Shown: positions 13,945 to 24,687, counted from the stretch's first letter. The stretch: 64,000 nucleotides of DNA from Arenicellales bacterium (GCA_965231865.1 CBDDOJ010000002.1:493837-557836), one strand, 5' to 3'. A program made the numbers and translations. The notes: generated by a model not told the origin, from the letters alone.

Positions 13945-15945
13945 ATGATTACTTCACTGCCCATGATAATGGGGGTTGTCGGCCTACTGGTCGCATTACT
14001 GGTATACAAAATGGTATTACGGTACCCGGCGGGGGAAGGCAAGGTTGCCGAGATCGGAGAAAAGATCCATCGGGGTGCCATGGTTTTCATGCGCCGGGAA
14101 TATGGCTATCTGACTATATTTGTCGCGGTGGTCGCACTGCTGATTTTCATCTCCGACCTTGGCGTCAAGACCATGCTTGCATTTCTGATTGGGGCGTTGT
14201 GTTCGGGGGTGGCCGGCTATATTGGCATGTATGCCGCAACCCATGCCAATGTCAGAACTACCACGGCGGCGGCACAGGTGGGGGCTGAAAGCGCGCTGGC
14301 AGTGGCGTTTTTCGGGGGCTCGGTGATGGGGTTGTGCGTGGCGGCCATGGGATTGCTGGGAATCGGTTTTCTCTACCTGCTGTTTGGCGGCGACCCGGAG
14401 ACGGCCCATGTGATTCACGGGTTCGGAATGGGGGCTTCTTCCGTTGCGCTGTTTTCCAGGGTCGGGGGTGGAATATTTACCAAGAGCGCCGATGTGGGGG
14501 CTGATCTGGTGGGGAAAGTGGAAGCCGGAATACCGGAAGATGATCCCCGAAACCCCGGGGTTATTGCGGACAATGTCGGGGACAATGTGGGCGATGTTGC
14601 AGGAATGGGGTCGGATATTTTCGAGTCGTATTGTGGTTCCATCATCGCAACCATCGCCATCGCCACCACCCTGCCTCCGGCAATGTTCAACCTGCTGGGG
14701 GAGCAGTCGGTGCTGATGTTCCTTCCCCTTGCGATGGCATCCGCCGGCCTCGTTTGTTCCATTTTGGGGATCGGGCTGGTGAAAATGAATACCGCCAGGT
14801 CTCCGGAGCTCGCGCTTCGAATTGGAACCATCGGGACCACCGTCCTGTTCATGGTGGTTTCCTATTTCGTGATCCGGTACATGGAAGTGAGTGTGAATGT
14901 ATGGGGGTCCGTAGCGGTGGGCGCAGTGGGCGGAATCGGCATTGGACTGATTACCGAATACTATACCGGTGGAAAACCGGTTCGTAATATTGCGAAAAGC
15001 GGGGAAACCGGTCCGGCGACCGTCATGATTGCCGGCCTCGCGGTGGGGATGGAATCGGTGGTGGTTCCGTTGCTGATCATCGCCTCCATCATCCTGGTCT
15101 CAAGCCACCTGACCGGCCTGTACGGTGTCGGCATCGCCGCAGTCGGCATGCTGGCCACCGTCGGCATTACCATGGCCATTGACGCCTATGGCCCGGTTGC
15201 CGACAACGCAGGTGGGATCGCGGAAATGGCCGGCATGGGCAAGGAAGTCCGTGAAATCACCGATTCCCTGGACGAACTGGGCAATACCACGGCTGCCATT
15301 GGAAAGGGCTTTGCCATTGGCGCAGCCGCCTTGGCGGCGTTGGCCATTATTTCCGCTTTTATCGAAACCGTTTCTCATCTGAACCCGGGTTTTTCATTGG
15401 AACTCAGTGACCCCAGGGTGTTGGCCGGCATGTTCCTGGGCGGCATCTTCCCCTTCCTGGTCTCCAGTATTACGATGAATGCGGTGGGCAGTGCGGCGTT
15501 CGAAATGATTCATGAAATTCGTCGTCAATTCAAGGAAATACCCGGGCTGATGGAGGGGACTGCGGAGCCGGATTCTGACCGCTGTGTGGACATTGCCACC
15601 CGGGCGGCACTCAAGCGGATGATTTTGCCGGGAGTGCTGGCCGTCGCAGCGCCCGCCGTGGTCGGATTTGGCCTTGGGGCAACGGCCCTGGGGGGCATGC
15701 TCGGCGGGGCACTCCTTGGCTGTGTGCTGATGGCCTTGACAATGGCCAATGCGGGAGGGGCCTGGGACAATGCCAAGAAATACATCGAAAAGGGAAACTT
15801 GGGCGGCAAGGGCTCGGAGGTTCATGCCGCGGCGGTGGTGGGGGATACGGTGGGGGACCCATTCAAGGACACCTCCGGGCCGTCCATGAACATCCTGATT
15901 AATGTCATGGCCATTGTCAGCCTGGTGATTGCCCCGCTCCTGTAG
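13945..15945 (+). CDS. hppA: membrane-integral pyrophosphate-energised cation pump (M-PPase)
   Basis: 666 aa and polytopic, with [31 protein letters not shown] and [14 protein letters not shown]. The Ala in the last motif suggests the K+-dependent subtype. Confidence 0.95.
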
Positions 15946-16046: not shown

Positions 16047-16238
16047 TCAGGAAAATTCCTGCCCCACTTCAAAATCAAAGATTTCGTTGAGCCTGAACTC
16101 GGTGATTAGTTGATCAACCGCCGCCTGGCCATGCTCCTTGGACACTTGCGTGAGGATGAGCTGTGCGGAATGCCGGTTGTACGACCCTCCGAAATCCGCC
16201 TGTACCTGAATGAGCTGTCGGGCCTTGTCCAGGGTCAC
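16047..16238 (-). CDS. possible 63-aa protein translationally coupled to pfp
   Basis: Its GTG start overlaps the pfp TGA (GTGA). The product is VTLDKARQLIQVQADFGGSYNRHSAQLILTQVSKEHGQAAVDQLITEFRLNEIFDFEVGQEFS. It was extracted from ORF 16047..16463, and no family was recognised. Confidence 0.3.
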   Translation of the reverse strand: MTLDKARQLIQVQADFGGSYNRHSAQLILTQVSKEHGQAAVDQLITEFRLNEIFDFEVGQEFS

Positions 16239-17500
16239 AGGCTGAAGTTCGTGTCGAGTTTTTTCCGGACCGGATGGTTTTCCAGTCGAACATAGTCCGG
16301 CAGGCCCTCCTGATAGGGAGGGTAATCTTCCCCCAGCATCAGCGGCTGCAGGTAATCCCGGCACTTTTGGGTAATGCCAAAACCATCCTCTGAGATATAG
16401 TCCCTGGGCAGTTTCTTTTCCACGTTGGCAACCCGGCTCAGCTCGACGGTGCCAATTTTCCATTCATAGGGGTGGTTGCGGACCCGGTCAATGGTGGGCA
16501 TGACGGAATTTTTACCCTGCAGCACCAGTTCCACGGCGGTTTTGCCCAATGCGTAAGCCTGTTCCACATCCGTTCTGGATGCAATATGCCGGGCGGACCG
16601 CTGCAGATAGTCGGCCACCGCCCAGTGGAATTTAAATCCCAGGTCCTGCTTCACCATGTTCGCCACCACCGGGGCCACGCCACCGAGCTGGGCATGCCCA
16701 AAGGCATCCATCTGGCCCTGGTCAGACAGAAACCTGCCGCCTGGGTCGCAGACCCCTTCGGATACCACGACGGACACATAGCCGTATTGTTCCACTTTTC
16801 GGCGGACTTCAGCGATGAATTGATTCCGGTTGAACGGGATTTCCGGAAAAAGCACAAGGATGGGAAGTTTTGTCCTGTCATCCGATGCCATTGCGCCGGC
16901 TGCCGCGATCCACCCGGCATGGCGTCCCATCACTTCCAGGATAAAGACCTTGGTGGAGGTTTCCGCCATGGAAGCCACGTCAAAGCTGGCTTCACGGGTG
17001 GAGATGGCGATGTACTTGGCCACGGACCCGAACCCCGGGCAGTTGTCCGTAAAAGGGAGATCATTGTCCACGGTCTTGGGGATGTGGATGGCCTGGATGG
17101 GGTATTTTGTCTCGGTGGACAGCTGGGCAACCTTCAAGCATGTATCCGCCGAATCGCCCCCGCCGTTATAGAAAAAGTAGCCGATGTCATGGGCGTTGAA
17201 AACGTCCATCAGCCGTTGGTATACCCGGCGATTTTCTTCGATGCCCTTCAGCTTGTACCGGCAGGAACCAAAGGCACCTGACGGCGTGTGGCGAAGTTTT
17301 GAAATGGCGGACGCCGATTCGGCTGACGTATCGATGAGGTCTTCGTGCAGGGCACCGAGGATGCCATGGCGGCCGGCATAGACGTTGCCGATTTTGTCCC
17401 GGTGTTTCCTGGCTGTTTCGATGACGCCGGCGGCGGAAGCATTGATGACCGCGGTCACCCCGCCGGACTGGGCATAAAAGGCATTTGGGATGCGGTTCAT
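16235..17500 (-). CDS. pfp: PfkA-family phosphofructokinase, probably PPi-dependent
   Basis: 421 aa, with NAFYAQSGGVTAVINAS, NGGGDSADT and PKTVDNDLP. PPi specificity is inferred from the family type and the hppA neighbour. Confidence 0.85.
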   Translation of the reverse strand: MNRIPNAFYAQSGGVTAVINASAAGVIETARKHRDKIGNVYAGRHGILGALHEDLIDTSAESASAISKLRHTPSGAFGSCRYKLKGIEENRRVYQRLMDVFNAHDIGYFFYNGGGDSADTCLKVAQLSTETKYPIQAIHIPKTVDNDLPFTDNCPGFGSVAKYIAISTREASFDVASMAETSTKVFILEVMGRHAGWIAAAGAMASDDRTKLPILVLFPEIPFNRNQFIAEVRRKVEQYGYVSVVVSEGVCDPGGRFLSDQGQMDAFGHAQLGGVAPVVANMVKQDLGFKFHWAVADYLQRSARHIASRTDVEQAYALGKTAVELVLQGKNSVMPTIDRVRNHPYEWKIGTVELSRVANVEKKLPRDYISEDGFGITQKCRDYLQPLMLGEDYPPYQEGLPDYVRLENHPVRKKLDTNFSL

Positions 17501-17561
17501 TTTGTGCAGGGATCGGTTAATTCAGTGACTTGCCGGTACTGCCGGAACCAACCCCTTCCCG
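17326..17561. repeat. direct repeat copy 1: pfp codons 1-58, a 16-bp spacer and the last 44 bp of the upstream 127-aa gene
   Basis: It matches 19731-19928 plus 21722-21759 with only 3 internal mismatches, read directly from the sequence. Confidence 0.9.
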
Positions 17562-17900
17562 CTCTCTTTCATGGTCAGACTGGGTCTGGAGAACGGCAGC
17601 GACACATTCATCCAGCTGGTTGTATTCCTCAATCCCCGTTCCGAACTGTTCATGGGGCGTGTAGAAAAACTGGGTTCGAAAAGCAAACATCCCGACTTTG
17701 AAAACAACGAAATTGCAGCCCCGTTCATGCCAGAAAACCGTGGGGCACGTGGTGAGGTCCGCATCGTCATTGCCCAAGCTGATCTCACAGTCCGCGAGTT
17801 GGATTTCAACATCCTTCTTGTATCGCTGGGTCAGCATCTCCCGGATGCCATGAAGTTCAGCGTCGGTAAATTCTGTCATTCTCTGGGAATTGAAAGGCAC
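17517..17900 (-). CDS. hypothetical 127-aa protein
   Basis: A clean ORF between hipA and pfp on the same strand: ..TEFTDAELHGIREMLTQRYKK..FWHERGCNFVVFK... No family was recognised. Confidence 0.55.
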   Translation of the reverse strand: MPFNSQRMTEFTDAELHGIREMLTQRYKKDVEIQLADCEISLGNDDADLTTCPTVFWHERGCNFVVFKVGMFAFRTQFFYTPHEQFGTGIEEYNQLDECVAAVLQTQSDHEREREGVGSGSTGKSLN

Positions 17901-18023
17901 GGTTCGTTCTGGATTCTACAATAAATCCAATGTGGTCACCATTCTGCTACCCAACGAGGATTAATACCGCCGACAATTATCGGCTCCTTGCCCTGGCCAC
18001 TCGGGATAAAGTGGCACCGCCTT

Positions 18024-19274
18024 CTATTCGTTGATCGTGCGCTGACATTGCTTGGTTACAACCTGTTCAATCCGTTGCAGTGCCGCATACTCGCCATAAA
18101 GATTTTCAAAGTTTTCCCTCACAGGCTGCAGGTTCTCCAGCAGCCTTGTAGCAACACCCAGAACTTGATTCTGGAGGAACTGAGGACGCAATCCACACTG
18201 GTTCGCCAGTGTGTCCCAATGCTTCAGGGTTACAACCCCCGGATTTCTTTCATCGCCTACGGAAAGAGCCAGGTGATAATCAATGCGTTCTATGGCACAG
18301 GTGCAAACGAGGTCATAAAAAGGCGCTAACCGGATTTCACCATTGGCCTGATGCAGTAGAGAAAGGTTTTTGGCGTGGCCATCCGAGTTGCCTGCCAGGA
18401 CGTTGAAGGCTTGCCAGCGAAGTAAATGCTGTACGTCGTTGGCAGGGTCGGTGGAGACATCCTGAATCAGCCGATAACAGTCGGCGAATGTCGGACCACC
18501 GTCCTCCTGATACTTGCGCTCGTGCCCGAAACCCAGCGCCTGACAAAAATCTTCCTGATGCAACCTCGCAATCCGGCCATTTTCAAGTGGGTGTCGATCA
18601 TAACGCTCAATCAAAGCATAGTGTGTGTCAGCTATTGAACGCAGCTGAATGTCGACCACTGGCAAGCCGATGGCTTCCGCCAGCAGGGTGGTAAAAGTCT
18701 CGTAGGCTGGCAGGTGCCGGTAATCGGACAATTCAAATTTCAGGATGTGGCTGGAGGGCGATTCCTTCTTGGGTAGCCAGTAGTCGTCGCCTTTCACCAA
18801 TACAGGGCATTTGTCCTGAGCTCCGGCTAAAGACAGCCGGGGGCGTTCATTGACAGTCCAGGTATACACTTGACCCCGGCGGGCAACCAGATTGGTGAGT
18901 TCTTCGTCCGAGATTTTGTGGTACTCGTGCTCCGTTGAGGGTTGATGCTCTGCTTGTAATAGGGAAAGCGCACCCGCACATTCACCGCCAATGGCGCGAA
19001 GCAGATCAAAGTCGGTATTGGCGATTTTGAGGTCGCGAACTATCTGATAGCGGACGCCTCCTTCTGGCAGCAGATTGGCGAAAAAGCGGTGAGCGAGATC
19101 TTCTTCAGGCGTAAAATCTTCCTTGCGCAGAGGCAGTGTATAGGAGATGGCAAATTCACCTTGTGCCAGCCATTCCTCTTCGTAACGAAAGCCGATCAGT
19201 CCCTGGGTGTTTCGCCACAGGTAGCCGACGAGTCGTTGATCGCTCCAGACATTGAGGCCATCGGGGTCAAGCAT
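18024..19274 (-). CDS. hipA: HipA-family serine/threonine kinase toxin
   Basis: MLDPDGLNVWSDQRLVGYL, LSLAGAQDK and NSDGHAKNLSLL are present. The start is taken at the ATG that overlaps the hipB end by 8 nt. Confidence 0.9.
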   Translation of the reverse strand: MLDPDGLNVWSDQRLVGYLWRNTQGLIGFRYEEEWLAQGEFAISYTLPLRKEDFTPEEDLAHRFFANLLPEGGVRYQIVRDLKIANTDFDLLRAIGGECAGALSLLQAEHQPSTEHEYHKISDEELTNLVARRGQVYTWTVNERPRLSLAGAQDKCPVLVKGDDYWLPKKESPSSHILKFELSDYRHLPAYETFTTLLAEAIGLPVVDIQLRSIADTHYALIERYDRHPLENGRIARLHQEDFCQALGFGHERKYQEDGGPTFADCYRLIQDVSTDPANDVQHLLRWQAFNVLAGNSDGHAKNLSLLHQANGEIRLAPFYDLVCTCAIERIDYHLALSVGDERNPGVVTLKHWDTLANQCGLRPQFLQNQVLGVATRLLENLQPVRENFENLYGEYAALQRIEQVVTKQCQRTINE

Positions 19275-19551
19275 GGCGTCCTCCATCCTTTTTTGATTGC
19301 GGTCTGGATGACGCGTCCCCACGGGGCTGAACCACCACTTCCAGCCCCAATGTGCGCAGTGCTTGCAACACTTTGCCTAGTTCTGCGGTTTCCTTGCCGC
19401 GCTCAAACTCAGATAGAAAGCGGGTACTCAGATTGCCCAGTCCGGAAATCGTTTCCAGTGTCAGCTTCCGTTGTTTTCGGTGAGCACGCACAAGCTTGCC
19501 GAGGTCTTCAGCCGATCGAACCGCACTGTATTGCACCGGATCGTTTCTCAT
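19267..19551 (-). CDS. hipB: HipB-like XRE-family antitoxin
   Basis: 94 aa with the HTH segment LGKLVRAHRKQRKLTLETISGLGNLSTRFLSEFERGK, immediately upstream of hipA. Confidence 0.85.
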   Translation of the reverse strand: MRNDPVQYSAVRSAEDLGKLVRAHRKQRKLTLETISGLGNLSTRFLSEFERGKETAELGKVLQALRTLGLEVVVQPRGDASSRPQSKKDGGRHA

Positions 19552-19568
19552 CTTTCACCTGCAAAAAA

Positions 19569-19689
19569 TTACCGTACGGTAAAAAATAGCATGTGTATGA
19601 TGTCAGAGCAACAAATATATACCGTACGTGATAATTGTACGTAATTTTGATTCAGGGATGGATTTTATATCACGTACGGTAAAAAATAG
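19569..19689 (-). promoter_or_regulatory. hipBA promoter/operator region with repeated CGTACG-core palindromes
   Basis: There is a perfect 14-bp palindrome TTACCGTACGGTAA (19569-19582). Related sites are at 19620-19631, 19635-19644 and 19670-19682. CGTACGGTAAAAAATAG recurs exactly 100 bp apart. On the minus strand, TTGCTC, 17 nt, then TATTTT lies just upstream of the first palindrome. Confidence 0.45.
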
Positions 19690-19722
19690 GCTGCGGGCAT
19701 ATAAAAAAACAGGCCGGTTCCA

Positions 19723-19905
19723 CTATAACCACGTGTCGATGAGGTCTTCGTGCAGGGCACCGAGGATGCCATGGCGGCCGGCATAGACGTTGCCGATTTT
19801 GTCCCGGTGTTTCCTGGCCGTTTCGATGACGCCGGCGGCGGAAGCATTGATGACCGCGGTCACCCCGCCGGACTGGGCATAAAAGGCATTTGGGATGCGG
19901 TTCAT
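19723..19905 (-). pseudogene. 5' fragment of pfp (58 codons)
   Basis: It encodes MNRIPNAFYAQSGGVTAVINASAAGVIETARKHRDKIGNVYAGRHGILGALHEDLIDT, identical to the pfp N-terminus, then diverges and stops. Confidence 0.85.
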
Positions 19906-19928
19906 TTTGTGCGGGGATCGGCTAATTC
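19731..19928. repeat. direct repeat copy 2, left part (interrupted by the IS)
   Basis: It aligns to 17326-17523 at an offset of 2405 bp, with 3 mismatches. Confidence 0.9.
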
Positions 19929-21715
19929 GTGTCTGGCATGAAAACCCCTTGATTTTGCGCGACCGGAGGAGTGAAAGCAATTTTGCAGGGTCCCTCCGGC
20001 GAATTGCGGAGGAGATTTTCGCTCAATGCCGCTTATTTTCGGCGGTTTGAGGCACGATTTGGCGGAATTTTACGCTCCAGGTCATAGGAGACCCTCCCCG
20101 TCGGTGCGGGGGCAGATCTGACCGGGTGAATAGGGCGTCAGGCAGCCAGGCGGTGTCTGTCACGATGCGTTTTCTCCGATTTCTGCAACATCCGGCCGAG
20201 TTGGTGCAGGTTGGCAGCAACGATGGCCAGCCCGACGGTTCTCTCGAACCCGTCGGCTCCTTTCGCCCGGACTCTGTCAAGTCCGTGATGCTCCAGGTGA
20301 TTGATTGCTGACTCCACGGCGGGGTGCTGTTTCCGTGCCCGGGAAAAGTTTTCTTCGGACTCCCGTTCCTGGTCCGCGGCATTCAGTCGGCCCTTTTTCG
20401 GCAAGGCCACCATGTCAAGCAGATTCTCCAGACGCCTGCGATTCTCCGGGCTGTGAAAGCCCCGGTCAAAGCTGCACTCCTGCAGGTCCGGGTGCATCTC
20501 CTGGCAGGACTCAATCAGGGGAACCGCTACATCCACATCCCCGCCTTGCCACATGATCTGATAATCCAGCACAAACTGGTGCTGGTCCTCGACAATGGCC
20601 AGGGGAACTCCGAGTTCCACCGGACGCCCCGCCTTGCCTTTCGATATCCACCGGGTATGCTCCTCGAATACCGAAAAGATTTTCTCGGAATGCTCAATCA
20701 CTTCGCCCTGCAACACCCGGCGGTCGATCTGGTCGGTGAATAGGTGGATATGCTTCAGATAATGGCGGATCTTCTCCATCCAGGCGGTGGATGCCCCGGC
20801 TTCCTTCAGGGCAACCAGAGATAACTCCGCTTTCCCGGCCATCTTCCGGCAGATCTTCAGATACTCCGACACCTGATCCGGTCGCTTCGTCCAAAGCCGG
20901 GCTGTGGCGACTCGATTGAACCGCTTGCGCACCTGTTTGGTCAGGTGCCGGTGCTGCCGCCAGCCTTTCACATCATGCAATTCACAAGCCTTGCCGGTTT
21001 CGCGGATCAGGCAACGAGTGGAATCCAATAGGAGGTTGAAATCAGTCGGGTAGTGGACGTCCGTCTCCACCACGAAACTATCACATCGCCCGGCCAACGT
21101 TTCTCCAGGCTTTTTTTTTGCGACCGTATGCCCCGTGGAAACCACCAGTCGGTTGACCTCACGCAGCAGTTCCGGAGTCAGCAGGGCCACATTGTCCACG
21201 ATCCGGGCCCGGACGTAGTAGGTATTGTCGATGCCGTCCATACCATGACCCAACATCTTGCGTATCGTTCGGTGCTCGTTGGCCAGATCATGCAGACGGT
21301 CGAAATCGCAGTTCAGTCCTTCCTTGAGAATGCCCAATACCAGAATCCGCCACATCTCCATTCCCGGACGCCCAACGGTGCGGTCGGTATCCGGTCGGAT
21401 ATGGGCTTCGAGCAACTCGAACAGCTCCTTGCGGGTATCCGGGTCGGTATAGATCAGTTGAAGGCCCTTCAACAGGGCCGGAATGTCGTCCCGGGACTTT
21501 TCGTCGAGGGCGATCTGTTCAATCGGGACGGAACCCAGAGGGGATTGGAGATCGATGACCGTTCTCATGCTGTACAATGCCTCGAAGATTTGCCGTAAAT
21601 GGCGGTTTCAGGGGGTTTTCCCTTCGGATTGTACTATATTCGCGAAATCTTCGCCACAAAAAAACGGGTAGTTATTCAAATAAATCAATCGTTTATGGGG
21701 TTTTCTGACAAGCAC
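19929..21715 (-). mobile_element. intact insertion sequence (~1.8 kb) with imperfect terminal inverted repeats and a 6-bp target duplication
   Basis: The ends are GTGTCTGGCATGAAAACCCC (19929-) and GGGGTTTTCTGACAAGCAC (-21715). TAATTC is present on both flanks (19923-19928 and 21716-21721). There is a single transposase ORF. Confidence 0.8.
20138..21577 (-). CDS. DDE transposase (IS4/IS5/ISNCY-like)
   Basis: 479 aa, with DSFVVETDVHYPTD, FDRGFHSPEN and HPAVESAINHLEHHGLDR. The exact IS family was not determined. Confidence 0.8.
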   Translation of the reverse strand: MYSMRTVIDLQSPLGSVPIEQIALDEKSRDDIPALLKGLQLIYTDPDTRKELFELLEAHIRPDTDRTVGRPGMEMWRILVLGILKEGLNCDFDRLHDLANEHRTIRKMLGHGMDGIDNTYYVRARIVDNVALLTPELLREVNRLVVSTGHTVAKKKPGETLAGRCDSFVVETDVHYPTDFNLLLDSTRCLIRETGKACELHDVKGWRQHRHLTKQVRKRFNRVATARLWTKRPDQVSEYLKICRKMAGKAELSLVALKEAGASTAWMEKIRHYLKHIHLFTDQIDRRVLQGEVIEHSEKIFSVFEEHTRWISKGKAGRPVELGVPLAIVEDQHQFVLDYQIMWQGGDVDVAVPLIESCQEMHPDLQECSFDRGFHSPENRRRLENLLDMVALPKKGRLNAADQERESEENFSRARKQHPAVESAINHLEHHGLDRVRAKGADGFERTVGLAIVAANLHQLGRMLQKSEKTHRDRHRLAA

Positions 21716-21721
21716 TAATTC

Positions 21722-21759
21722 AGTGACTTGCCGGTACTGCCGGAACCAACCCCTTCCCG
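21722..21759. repeat. direct repeat copy 2, right part (beyond the IS)
   Basis: AGTGACTTGCCGGTACTGCCGGAACCAACCCCTTCCCG is identical to 17524-17561. Confidence 0.85.
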
Positions 21760-22120
21760 ATCTCTCGTTCGTCGGCGTACCGATGAGGGAATCCCAGGCG
21801 GTACCGGGGCTGGGAATCACCGCAACTTCGCACAACCCGGTGGTGCCGGCAGCCGGGCGGTGGAGGATGAACAGGCTGATTGCATGGAAGATCACGAAGC
21901 GGGTGCATTCCGGCAGGGCAGATTCCCGGTTCGGGACGGATTGTTCCGGGTCCAAGGGACATTCTGGTCGTGATTGGGGCCCCGGCCTTTTTTGGTGCAG
22001 AAATGGGCGGTTGCGGAGGCGGTGACAGTGCGCCCTTTCAGGGCGTACCACTGTTTTGCGCTGACACGCAACAGGATTCATTTTTGACATCGTATATGAT
22101 GTGATCCACTATTCAGTGTT

Positions 22121-22545
22121 GTGCATAGATTCGTTTTGGATGCTGACGTTGTCGTGGTGGTCATGCGTAGCCCAATTGGGACATCTGCGGCTTTATTGGG
22201 AAAAGTGCTGGATCAATGGGTCACGATGCTGACCAGCGTGCCGCTGTTTTTTGAATATGAAGCGCAGTGTACCTCCCCTTCATTGGACCGCTGCAGGATT
22301 AACGCAAGAGCAGGCGAGTGTATTTTTGAGTGGCTTGGCGGCGTTGATCACACCGGTGAAAATGCATTATTCATGGCGTCCATCGCTGCGGGACCCCAAT
22401 GACGAAATGGTGTTGGAAACGGCCGTCAATGGACGTGCTGATCATGATCGTTACCTTCAATTTGCGGGACTATGGTAGGGTGCCAGACCGTTTCAATATC
22501 GAGGTTCTGAGACCGGGTACCGCGATCAGGAGAGTAAGAAAATGA
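22121..22545 (+). pseudogene. PIN-domain toxin gene with at least two frameshifts
   Basis: Three frames together give RFVLDADVVVVVMRSPIGTSAALL..SVPLFFEYEA / GLTQEQASVFLSGLAALITPV..WRPSLRDPNDEMVLETAVNGRAD / IVTFNLRDYGRVPDRFNIEVLRPG. The shifts lie near 22262-22275 and at GATCATGATC (22440-22449). Confidence 0.7.
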
Positions 22546-22796
22546 GTGAGAAGTCCACCTATCCATTAAGGTTGCCCAAATCGCTTAAAGATGAAGTAGC
22601 CAAAGTGGCCAAACGAGACGGGACAAGTATGAATCAGTTTATCGCCATTGCGGTGGCTGAAAAAATCTCTGCGTTGGAAACCGGGCAATTTTTTGCTGAA
22701 CGCGCCAAAGGCTCGGATCTTGAAGCCTTCAGGGCGATTCTGTTTCGTCCCGGTGGTGAACTCCCCCGCTCTGGGGATGAAGTAGTCGATCAATAA
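22542..22796 (+). CDS. ribbon-helix-helix (CopG/Arc-like) antitoxin
   Basis: 84 aa with YPLRLPKSLKDEVAKVAKRDGTSMNQFIAIAVAEKIS. Its ATG overlaps the stop of the PIN reading frame (ATGA). Confidence 0.75.
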   Translation: MSEKSTYPLRLPKSLKDEVAKVAKRDGTSMNQFIAIAVAEKISALETGQFFAERAKGSDLEAFRAILFRPGGELPRSGDEVVDQ

Positions 22797-22812
22797 CCCT
22801 GAATCTGGAAGG

Positions 22813-23157
22813 ATGAACACCGCCGCCATTAAAATCCGGATGACGCCTTCCCACCCGGGGGAGTTCGTTCGGCTTGAAATCATTGAAGCCCTGAATCTGA
22901 CCATTTCGGCGGCCGCAGAGATTCTTGGTGTACGCCGGGCAACACTCTCAGCCTTGCTGAATGGCAAGGCTGCCCTATCACCCGAAATGGCGTTGCGTCT
23001 TGAAAAGGCTTTCGATATCCATATGGATCTGTTGATGCGGATGCAGGCCTGGCATGACGTTGCACGCATGCGTCGCCTGGCGGATAAAATTGCTACGGAT
23101 GTACGTCGATATGAAAGCCGAACTGGTGTATCAGGAAATGGTGGACGAATACGATGA
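22813..23157 (+). CDS. higA: HigA-family XRE antitoxin-like protein
   Basis: The segment HPGEFVRLEIIEALNLTISAAAEILGVRRATLSALLNGKAALSPEMALRLEKAF is the HigA signature. No higB is adjacent. Confidence 0.8.
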   Translation: MNTAAIKIRMTPSHPGEFVRLEIIEALNLTISAAAEILGVRRATLSALLNGKAALSPEMALRLEKAFDIHMDLLMRMQAWHDVARMRRLADKIATDVRRYESRTGVSGNGGRIR

Positions 23158-24014
23158 CCGACAATCGCGATTTTCCTGCCCACGCCACATTCTCGCAACG
23201 CTATGGATACGAACCATTACCAGAGCCAATGCGGCTTGAGGAAATTTCGGATGATTTGAGGCGCGAAATTTGGAACGGTGTTTATTCTTACATCAGCTCT
23301 TTAGATCTATATGGAGTTACAGAAAAACGCATACAAGTTGCATTGGGAAGATATCACAGTAAGCCGGAGAGTCAAATTAACACTAACTACATCCCGGTAG
23401 AGGGGGATATGGAAAACACCATTCTGTATCACGACTTCAATAAGGTTTTGGACTTTCTTGAAATTGTAATTGAAGAAAAGGTTATTCCTAAGTACCTCCG
23501 ATTGGAAATTGGGAGATTATTTGAAAAGCATGGAGCCGCTTATCGGCTGGATTTTTCAAGTACTCCCTATCGATTCGTTCCAAGTGCAAGCAAAGAACAG
23601 AGTGAATCAACACAACATGCTCTCCAAACGCTCCATGAAGGTAACATGGATGGAGCCACAACACATTTGCGTCAAGCGGCGGAACATATCAACGCATGCC
23701 AGTATGCTGATGCGATCACCGATTGCATTCTTGCGGTCGAGTCCGTGGCCCGGATAATCGACCCCCAATCCAGTGCTACGTTGGGACCGGCACTACATTC
23801 CCTTGAACAGACCGGCGTGCTGAATCATCCAGTGCTCAAGCAGGCGTTCCTTAAACTATACGGCTATACCAACGACGAACAGGGTCTGCGCCATGCTCTT
23901 CTTGATCAGGATGCCGCCGGTGTCGGTCTGTCCGAGGCTGTGTTCATGTTCGGGGCCTGCGCGTCCTTCGCTGCTTACCTGGTGCAGAAGCACCAGCAGG
24001 CTGGAGGGACATGA
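23154..24014 (+). CDS. AbiJ-like protein (AbiJ-NTD-like N-terminus, Abi_C/HEPN-like C-terminus)
   Basis: 286 aa. The N-terminus FSQRYGYEPLPEPMRLEEISDDLRREIWN and the C-terminal LKLYGYTNDEQGLRHALLD resemble AbiJ-type abortive-infection proteins, from memory of the family. Its ATG overlaps the higA stop (ATGA). Confidence 0.55.
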   Translation: MTDNRDFPAHATFSQRYGYEPLPEPMRLEEISDDLRREIWNGVYSYISSLDLYGVTEKRIQVALGRYHSKPESQINTNYIPVEGDMENTILYHDFNKVLDFLEIVIEEKVIPKYLRLEIGRLFEKHGAAYRLDFSSTPYRFVPSASKEQSESTQHALQTLHEGNMDGATTHLRQAAEHINACQYADAITDCILAVESVARIIDPQSSATLGPALHSLEQTGVLNHPVLKQAFLKLYGYTNDEQGLRHALLDQDAAGVGLSEAVFMFGACASFAAYLVQKHQQAGGT

Positions 24015-24179
24015 ACACAGCTTGTGTTCATGTAGGTTAGCCGTTCGGGTTGCAACCTTCTCGTTTTGCCCTTTCTCCCGGTTTACCGCTCGGGTAAACC
24101 CCTTCCATTATATCGACTGTAGTTTTATGCCGATATCGGCATAACCAATAGGAGCCTGTTTTTAAAAGGACCCTTCGGG

Positions 24180-24403
24180 AGTGGGTCATTGGGCGTAAGC
24201 TCAGCTTCGGTTCCCAAGTGTCCAAGGGTTGAATTCAAGGCGACGATGCACACGGTATTGGGAACGTGCGGGCCTGGCTGGTGGACACTCAGGCCCAGCT
24301 GCTGGGCTCCCTAGGACTGGCGCAGTCGCCTGTCCACAATGTTCCGGATGATCGATACCCGATCCAGCTCTCGATTGCTCAATATAACGGTCTCTTTTGT
24401 CAT
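24180..24403 (-). pseudogene. remnant of an IS transposase N-terminal HTH region
   Basis: A GAGGAGG RBS precedes an ATG at 24403. The product reads MTKETVILSNRELDRVSIIRNIVDRRLRQS, then a stop, then ..AQQLGLSV.. and decays. This resembles the HTH leader of rve/ISNCY-type transposases. Confidence 0.4.
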
Positions 24404-24419
24404 GGGTCCTCCTCAATGA

Positions 24420-24456
24420 AAAAGAGGACATTTTAATATTGCTAAAAGAGGACATT
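24420..24456. repeat. two 13-bp direct repeats, AAAAGAGGACATT
   Basis: They lie at 24420-24432 and 24444-24456, just upstream of the transposase remnant. Confidence 0.6.
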
Positions 24457-24552
24457 ACTACTTTGCGTTAACACAATCCCCTGATTCGGCTTGAATTGTT
24501 GCGCCAAACAGGTTAGATTCCGCAACCCTTTGGTGGTCATTGAATTAAAACC

Positions 24553-24687
24553 ATGAAACGTACCTTTCAACCGAGCGGAGTGAAACGAAAACGAACCCAC
24601 GGATTCCGTGCGCGCATGCGTACTCGAGGTGGACGGGCCATCATCAATGCCCGTCGAGCCAAGGGACGGACCCGCCTGAGCGCGTAG
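24553..24687 (+). CDS. rpmH: 50S ribosomal protein L34
   Basis: It is below the ORF-track length cutoff. Hand translation gives [44 protein letters not shown]. Confidence 0.95.

Follow-up and report, generated by a model that had tools for sequence, protein, structure and literature searches.

A dead second copy of the pfp 5′ end beside a hipBA insertion in a toxin–antitoxin hotspot of a sponge-associated gammaproteobacterium

The repeated pfp 5′ end and the genes it brackets

The window analysed here is a stretch of 64,000 nucleotides from an Arenicellales bacterium (GCA_965231865.1 CBDDOJ010000002.1:493837-557836), in which the 5′ end of pfp, the gene for pyrophosphate (PPi)-dependent phosphofructokinase (PFK), occurs twice, on either side of the toxin–antitoxin pair hipBA and a small gene that we call g127. 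The pfp gene itself (16235-17500, minus strand) is intact and encodes 421 amino acids (aa), with matches to PF00365 (E=1.8e-45) and to NCBIfam PRK14072 (635 bits against a cut-off of 273), and 421-aa orthologues were found in all relatives examined. Its upstream neighbour g127 (17517-17879, minus strand) is a conserved hypothetical gene; the open reading frame (ORF) reaches a GTG at 17900, and alignment of homologues assigns the start to the ATG at 17879, and the 127 aa given by the first-pass annotation of this sequence shorten to 120. Scanning species-representative genomes with Pfp returned a Candidatus (Ca.) Poriferihabitaceae chromosome from a metagenome-assembled genome (MAG; L001) at 96% aa identity, a gammaproteobacterial MAG (L002) at 90% and further relatives at greater distance. 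The window organism is a sponge-associated gammaproteobacterium of the Ca. Poriferihabitaceae, a family described from sponge metagenomic data (PMC12859430).

The live copy of the repeat, R1 (17326-17567, minus strand), comprises the last 51 bp of g127 including its stop codon, the 16-bp spacer and pfp codons 1-58, and runs on into native g127 and pfp, as it does in the single-copy sister species represented by L002. The second copy, R2, is split by an insertion sequence (IS). Its proximal part (19731-19928, minus strand) holds a dead pfp stub, consisting of codons 1-58, two further codons and a stop, then the spacer and the stop region of g127 as far as the IS, while its distal part (21722-21765, minus strand) holds codons of the g127 3′ tail, the last 16 of which matched 16/16 (94% identity). 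Repeat searches of the window paired 17326-17523 with 19731-19928 and 17518-17567 with 21716-21765, each at 98% identity; once 19929-21721 is removed, R1 is colinear with R2 over 242 bp, with five mismatches (17330, 17414, 17508, 17517 and 17562), and the stub is identical to pfp codons 1-58 at 58/58 residues. Direct repeats of 242 bp at 98% identity, bracketing the hipBA-g127 unit, lie far beyond chance, and a search of the whole window gave neither a third copy of the repeat nor a further copy of the IS. The first-pass annotation had correctly placed the repeat, its content (the 3′ end of the upstream ORF, the 16-bp spacer and pfp codons 1-58) and the minus-strand order R2, hipB, hipA, upstream gene, R1, pfp, all of which alignments and domain matches bear out; its figures of 236 bp and three mismatches become 242 bp, with four mismatches inside the original 236.

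R2 lies in direct orientation, colinear with a contiguous native segment that is single-copy in the outgroup, and neither of its outer ends occurs in the single-copy arrangement. At 19730/19731, pfp codon 58 is joined to the upstream end of the hipBA segment with a 3-bp overlap, CGT; at 21765/21766, g127 codon ~105 (in 120-aa numbering, ~111 on the 127-aa ORF) is joined to a non-coding spacer, U. Both joints are identical across all strains compared. Exact-protein look-ups with HipB and g127 recovered the order R2-hipB-hipA-g127-R1-pfp, free of the IS, on upwards of 12 additional contigs of the same species, drawn from at least eight ENA assemblies and including several long-read contigs of 0.17-2 Mb; the arrangement is identical in L001/L093, L082-L091 and L094-L099. 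L001 matches the window colinearly to either side of the IS, with both repeat copies present. In Logan unitigs of three sequencing runs, which cover 94-97% of the k-mers of the region but break at the repeat and cannot show the joints, the repeat unitig (17331-17547) stands at ~2x flanking depth. Since the same order recurs in independent assemblies, long-read ones among them, and the repeat unitig is about twice as deep as its flanks, mis-assembly can in practice be ruled out, and the structure at 17.3-21.8 kb, which the first-pass annotation had singled out for checking, is genuine.

The IS within R2 (19929-21715, minus strand) is a 1787-bp element of the ISNCY family, with a transposase gene at 20138-21577 (NF033593, 468.6 bits against a cut-off of 325) and imperfect terminal inverted repeats, GTGTCTGGCATGAAAACCCC and GTGCTTGTCAGAAAACCCC. 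A 6-bp target duplication, TAATTC, flanks it at 19923-19928 and 21716-21721. This duplication is proven by contig L085, 99% identical to the window over 20 kb, in which the site is uninterrupted (...CACTGAATTAGCCGATCC..., target ...CACTGAATTAGCCG...). Transposase, terminal inverted repeats, target duplication and the uninterrupted site in L085 thus all place the element in the ISNCY family, and the interruption and TAATTC duplication reported in the first-pass annotation hold. Among the contigs compared, only the window genome carries the IS at R2; the insertion happened late. In unitigs of runs X1, X2 and X4 the element stands at ~5-6x flanking or chromosomal depth, which implies that it is multicopy in the genome, although the copy in R2 is the only one in the 64-kb window.

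Native and foreign DNA between the repeats

Gene order in relatives indicates that g127 is the native partner of pfp and not cargo of hipBA, because it adjoins pfp both in a hipBA-less sister species and in distant relatives; only its variable, disordered tail has been duplicated. We found g127 directly upstream of pfp in L001, L002, L003, L013 and L102-L106. Among these, L002 and L102-L105 have no hipBA, and L003, L013 and L106 (the last from an Ircinia sponge metagenome) carry g127 proteins of 47%, 43% and 80% identity, respectively, upstream of which lie wholly different genes (Calx-beta, adenylate kinase and defence genes). The earlier assignment of this gene to a hipBA cassette is thereby overturned. 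Wherever the context could be seen, g127 and pfp were separated by a 16-18-bp spacer or overlapped by 4 bp. The g127 family comprises 98 clusters of proteins of 105-140 aa, none of them annotated, and a scan of JGI metagenomes with g127 added one distant locus. No Pfam or NCBIfam family matched g127, and its AlphaFold (AF2) model, an alpha-beta5-alpha fold with a predicted local distance difference test (pLDDT) score of 86.8, had no PDB fold match at E <= 0.001. Residues 111-120 form a disordered tail in this model, and in the homologue alignment conservation stops at ...SDHERE, where the repeat begins. From its position, g127 may encode an uncharacterised partner or regulator of PPi-PFK. On the other side of pfp, a 63-aa ORF (16047-16238, minus strand) overlaps the pfp stop codon (ATGA) and is called in every related contig; it matches no family and separates pfp from hppA (13945-15945), which encodes an H+-pyrophosphatase and is convergent.

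Comparison with homologous loci indicates that the only foreign DNA between the repeats is the hipBA segment of ~1.79 kb (17948-19733, minus strand), which holds a promoter/operator region, hipB, hipA and a 3′ tail, and extends from the CGT overlap to a point 12-16 bp short of the native g127-upstream sequence. Homologues of HipA number in the thousands, and many of them, on unrelated contigs, are 84-91% identical. At the nucleotide level, the segment matches an IS-rich region in L107 at 86.4% identity over exactly 19733..17948, ten Tara loci, where it lies between IS5-family fragments, at 88.6% over 19692..17985, and a locus downstream of guaA in L108 at 84.6% over 19687..18024, so that the homology end points differ among these three kinds of context. 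No g127 or pfp sequence accompanies hipBA in L107, L108 or the Tara loci, which answers the first-pass suggestion to look for the 127-aa protein next to hipBA elsewhere, and no long direct repeats flank the module at the sites in L107-L111. In the Tara contigs L109-L118, from coral or ocean metagenomes, near-identical hipBA copies lie between IS5-family transposase fragments (DUF772, DUF4096), and L107 shares part of the Tara-type upstream flank. These contexts suggest that hipBA spreads inside IS-rich DNA. Exact look-ups with the window pfp and with the 432-aa HipA ORF matched no database record.

The toxin gene hipA (18024-19274, minus strand) appears intact, encoding a 416-aa kinase with HipA_C (PF07804, 1.5e-52) and Couple_hipA (PF13657, 1.9e-25) domains; it aligns with Escherichia coli HipA (2WIU) at E=1e-43 over residues 8-326, keeps the DGHAKN and PFYD motifs, and has the same length as more than 100 homologues. 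The antitoxin gene hipB (19267-19551, minus strand) encodes a helix-turn-helix (HTH) protein of 94 aa, with matches to HTH_19, HTH_31, HTH_3 and TIGR03070 (couple_hipB, 1.1e-14), and overlaps hipA by 8 nt; the HipB protein is identical on 14 contigs. Upstream of hipB, a putative HipB operator (19569-19689) contains TACCGTACGGTA-type palindromes, with a direct repeat at 19573-19589/19673-19689 and a palindrome, and these palindromes are conserved in the hipBA homologues of L107 and L108. By its sequence the pair thus has the make-up of a type II HipBA system, with coupling and kinase domains that carry the catalytic motifs and an overlapping HTH gene upstream. At this locus, comparison of sister strains indicates that the module is decaying in the population, because hipA has been broken in three independent ways: by a 5.5-kb insert with a 678-aa serine recombinase in L082 (10278-17052), by a frameshift that leaves ORFs of 213 + 213 aa in L084 (10278-11527), and by an IS256-type (Transposase_mut) element in L087 (3223-5426).

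The sister species (L002 and L102-L105; four assemblies), at 86-87% nucleotide identity to the window, has the order rnpA-rpmH, a ~330-bp spacer and then g127-pfp-hppA-xerC-DUF484-dapF, with one copy of the repeat segment and no hipBA. Homology between the window and L002 breaks at 24475 and resumes at 17935. The gene xerC, a Phage_integrase match and the one tyrosine recombinase gene in the vicinity, was considered as a candidate integrase and set aside, as it lies in a dapF-DUF484-xerC housekeeping context that is also present in the empty-site species. The DNA that separates R2 from rpmH is built of modules. The non-coding spacer U (21766-22120), between R2 and a decayed PIN_3 toxin gene, is 100% identical in L001, and its alignments with g127 and with the sister rpmH-g127 spacer were no better than those of shuffled sequence; across 21766-24520, neither DNA nor protein comparison, set against shuffled controls, revealed a g127 5′ remnant or native rpmH-g127 spacer. 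The PIN_3 gene (22121-22478, plus strand) has decayed through frameshifts, with profile positions 1-57 and 74-107 matched in separate frames. Next on the same strand come an intact 84-aa ribbon-helix-helix (RHH)/Arc-like gene (22542-22796; Arc, 2.6e-05), which resembles an orphaned antitoxin, and then a HigA-like HTH gene (22813-23157; TIGR02607, 2.1e-23) and a gene for a 286-aa AbiJ_NTD4 protein (23154-24014; 9.7e-15). The last two make up a strain-variable HigA/AbiJ_NTD4 module (22802-24471, plus strand): L083 joins 22801 directly to 24472. The module is rearranged around an IS in L082, and a group II intron-type reverse transcriptase is inserted nearby in L097. The rpmH-g127 spacer is a strain-variable hotspot for toxin–antitoxin and defence genes; it adjoins rnpA-yidC-mnmE and is probably near oriC.

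The first-pass conclusion that pfp is now driven from sequence that arrived with a toxin–antitoxin module stands in part at most. The proximal ~56 bp upstream of the g127 ATG are native, including a TAGAAT near 17917-17922 that the sister species shares, with the g127-pfp transcription start predicted shortly after it; upstream of about -35 lies hipBA DNA in the same orientation as g127-pfp. Promoter and terminator consensus sequences were no more frequent than in shuffled controls, and the minus strand from hipA to pfp yielded no informative match. Read-through from hipBA into g127-pfp is a possibility suggested by this layout, because the upstream DNA is hipBA in the same orientation and no convincing terminator intervenes.

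Origin of R2 and its exchange with the live copy

We read R2 as what remains after a native stretch (g127 3′ end, spacer, pfp codons 1-58) was duplicated locally and in direct orientation beside a hipBA insertion in the toxin–antitoxin hotspot, and give this reading a probability of about 0.72. All contigs with hipBA at this locus carry R2, and the hipBA-less sister species has neither; the first-pass annotation had linked the duplication to the cassette, and this co-occurrence, together with a codon-58 end that abuts hipBA directly, upholds the link. With 1-7 differences from window-type R1 but 39 from the L002 segment, R2 is marked by sequence comparison as derived from the window species' own copy. 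Duplication by homologous recombination had been offered earlier as a fallback; duplication does prove the better explanation, but its novel joints suggest that it arose by illegitimate, not homologous, recombination.

The ancestral order would have been rnpA-rpmH, a ~330-bp spacer and g127-pfp-orf63, with hppA convergent. Along what is most likely the route, as we infer it, hipBA would have inserted upstream of g127, an unequal, microhomology-mediated exchange would then have produced a 2.4-kb tandem duplication [hipBA-g127-pfp′], and a deletion would have removed the redundant upstream hipBA-g127 copy, leaving R2. Alternatively, hipBA would have inserted in a single step with a staggered target duplication of ~0.6 kb, later truncated by a PIN-RHH insertion or deletion. 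Either way the ends of R2 are novel joints, the pfp side joined illegitimately (CGT) to hipBA and the g127 side to U.

A mosaic of identities between the window and L001 bears on the order of these steps. The two genomes diverge by ~5% overall, while 18400-22000 (the 5′ part of hipA, hipB, R2 and U) is 98.5-100% identical and the 3′ part of hipA (18000-18400) is at the background level of ~95.5%. Within L001, R1 and R2 differ at 18 positions. The RHH-HigA block (22400-23200) is likewise 98.5-100% identical between the two genomes, whereas the adjacent 23200-24600 reaches only 83-92%. These values suggest that hipBA was at the locus before the window and L001 lineages split, that the R2-bearing block was exchanged between them recently by homologous recombination, as were other segments of the island, and that hipBA is probably older than the present R2 copy in L001. 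An order with hipBA first and R2 later is compatible with the mosaic, without being proved by it.

The two copies have not evolved separately. In a comparison of ten genomes, five sites are polymorphic for the same alleles in R1 as in R2, where chance would give 0.36 (hypergeometric P ~4e-6), and a single fixed difference, 6 bp from the repeat edge, separates the two copies. The mean distance between R1 and R2 within a genome (3.9) is close to that between R1 copies of different genomes (3.2), and the pattern of shared polymorphism also holds in long-read contigs alone. Such sharing across strains means that the live and dead copies exchange sequence by ongoing gene conversion. Two of the polymorphisms that change an amino acid, P5R and H45N, are present in both the stub and live pfp. 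Between the direct repeats, recombination could also loop out hipBA and most of g127, a unit of 2405 bp; no such deletion variant occurred among the contigs examined.

Several observations weigh against the duplication as we reconstruct it. Among ~20 contigs, from one species and its sister, none is a hipBA-g127 strain without R2 and none carries a full second g127; the order of events rests on parsimony because no intermediate was found. The tandem-duplication route takes ~4 events, against ~3 for the rescue scenario discussed below. A 3-bp microhomology is weak, and the L107 flank may not represent that of the donor. Some 12-16 bp (17936-17951) match neither hipBA homologues nor native sequence upstream of g127. 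Some strain sequences were assembled from short-read metagenomes, and variants of the repeat could be wrongly phased there. Finally, all five single-nucleotide polymorphisms (SNPs) private to the stub are synonymous, which is unexpected for drifting dead DNA; import by gene conversion from R1 alleles outside the sample would be a simple explanation.

The alternative that survives best is a rescue through homology-facilitated illegitimate recombination, which we consider unlikely but tenable. Here, a PIN-RHH insertion destroyed most of g127, leaving U-R2-pfp, and hipBA-g127-pfp was then imported from a related strain, with a homologous right end within pfp and an illegitimate left end at codon 58, so that R2 is the old 5′ end of the recipient. 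This accounts for both novel joints in ~3 events, the U|R2 joint being that of the older deletion in g127; an illegitimate end-join is consistent with the CGT overlap at codon 58, and the near-identical blocks shared by genomes that diverge by 5% show that homologous exchange does occur across the locus. Against this, g127 is conserved beside pfp across the family, so that a g127-less lineage is an extra assumption, and no g127-less genome was present among ~20 contigs; later gene conversion has wiped out any signature of donor and recipient. It is because g127 loss is otherwise unseen in the family that the duplication routes are favoured over this one. The rescue is also the nearest tenable form of the earlier proposal that pfp received a replacement 5′ end, which, in the version with homologous DNA from a related strain, survives as a minor possibility, although the imported tract would still be native-type DNA of the same species and not toxin–antitoxin cassette sequence.

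Selection on the stub is a separate question. The stub ORF (19731-19905) is open in 11/11 copies (window, L001 and L082-L089), its private SNPs are all synonymous, and it trades alleles with live pfp. The 60-codon stub might therefore be kept by selection, as a sequence reservoir for the pfp 5′ end and its translation-initiation region, as an expressed N-terminal PFK fragment or as an arm of a recombination switch that loops out or amplifies the 2.4-kb hipBA-g127 unit, all of which we regard as quite improbable. On the favoured reading R2 is, apart from its exchange with R1, inert DNA, which in the window strain alone has caught a copy of the ISNCY element.

Contradicted by these data, and very improbable, is the first-pass interpretation itself, in which hipBA and the 127-aa gene entered pfp at codon 58 as an integrative element that brought a replacement 5′ end; if the element were site-specific, the repeats would be its attL and attR. 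Direct repeats do bracket the segment, one of them with a dead gene start, which gives a superficial likeness to target-restoring elements. Beyond the flanking repeats, the hallmarks of such elements (an internal recombinase, a clean empty site and the same unit found elsewhere) did not appear. ORF and domain scans agree with the earlier statement that no integrase lies between the repeats, where hipB, hipA and g127 are the only genes. The empty site carries g127, and g127 and R1 form contiguous native sequence, and nothing points to a self-contained cassette that brought a replacement pfp 5′ end; hipBA travels alone, occurring elsewhere without g127, pfp sequence or comparable repeats. A simple integration would have kept the native upstream sequence beyond R2, where U lies instead, and the empty site predicted earlier, with pfp directly preceded by the sequence from 21760 onwards, had no counterpart, as no U-R-pfp variant turned up among contigs from look-ups with hipB, g127, HigA and RHH. 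A duplication present in relatives without hipBA had been named as grounds for separating it from the cassette; R2 was found in every hipBA contig and not in the hipBA-less sister.

That two strain variants were stitched together through the shared 242-bp sequence, conceivable for a metagenome-derived genome from a strain-diverse population, can be dismissed, as the same joints recur in at least 12 contigs from at least eight assemblies, several of them long-read at 0.17-3.1 Mb, the repeat unitig has 2x depth in three runs, and the joint at 19730/19731 would be absent from either hypothetical parent.

Significance and comparison with known systems

The value of this analysis lies mainly in a corrected annotation: the mobile DNA is a bare 1.8-kb hipBA module that landed in a hotspot by rpmH, the second pfp start is a pseudogene fragment, and pfp is intact with its native partner, spacer and proximal upstream sequence. 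The locus also provides a population-level example of sequence exchange between a short dead duplicate and the 5′ end of its single-copy metabolic counterpart, and its direct repeats set up a possible deletion of the toxin–antitoxin module. The event is of a known kind and leaves the understanding of integrative elements and of toxin–antitoxin mobility unchanged.

The module resembles E. coli HipBA in that an HTH antitoxin gene overlaps the gene for the HipA kinase, which has N and C domains with DGHAKN and PFYD motifs, and in the palindromes upstream; it differs in that similarity is moderate (E=1e-43), hipA is broken in several sister strains and activity is predicted only. Integrative elements that restore their target gene include prophage e14 in E. 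coli icd and islands in tRNA and transfer-messenger RNA (tmRNA) genes. Like e14-type elements, the insert described here is surrounded by direct repeats, one of which duplicates a gene end in non-functional form, and leaves the gene intact. Unlike them, it has no integrase, encloses a native gene between its repeats and is flanked by a 242-bp repeat of ordinary coding and spacer sequence; its outer flank is non-native, and hipBA moves elsewhere without repeats.

Further parallels are found among duplications and converting repeats. As reported (PMC3784515), transformation-triggered tandem duplications in Streptococcus pneumoniae produce merodiploids of 100-900 kb, which share with our locus a direct, colinear second copy, a novel join and a copy that is free to decay; here the unit is 2.4 kb, the join is at a microhomology and not at IS repeats, and what is left is a 242-bp remnant. 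A second report (PMC2568036), on concerted evolution between short paralogous segments, describes a gene-conversion unit in a tandem paralogue cluster that consists of the 3′ end of one ORF, the intergenic region and the 5′ end of the next ORF. The unit exchanged between R1 and R2 has the same composition, a gene 3′ end, a spacer and the 5′ end of the next gene, but one partner in this exchange is a dead stub beside a single-copy metabolic gene instead of a member of a paralogue family.

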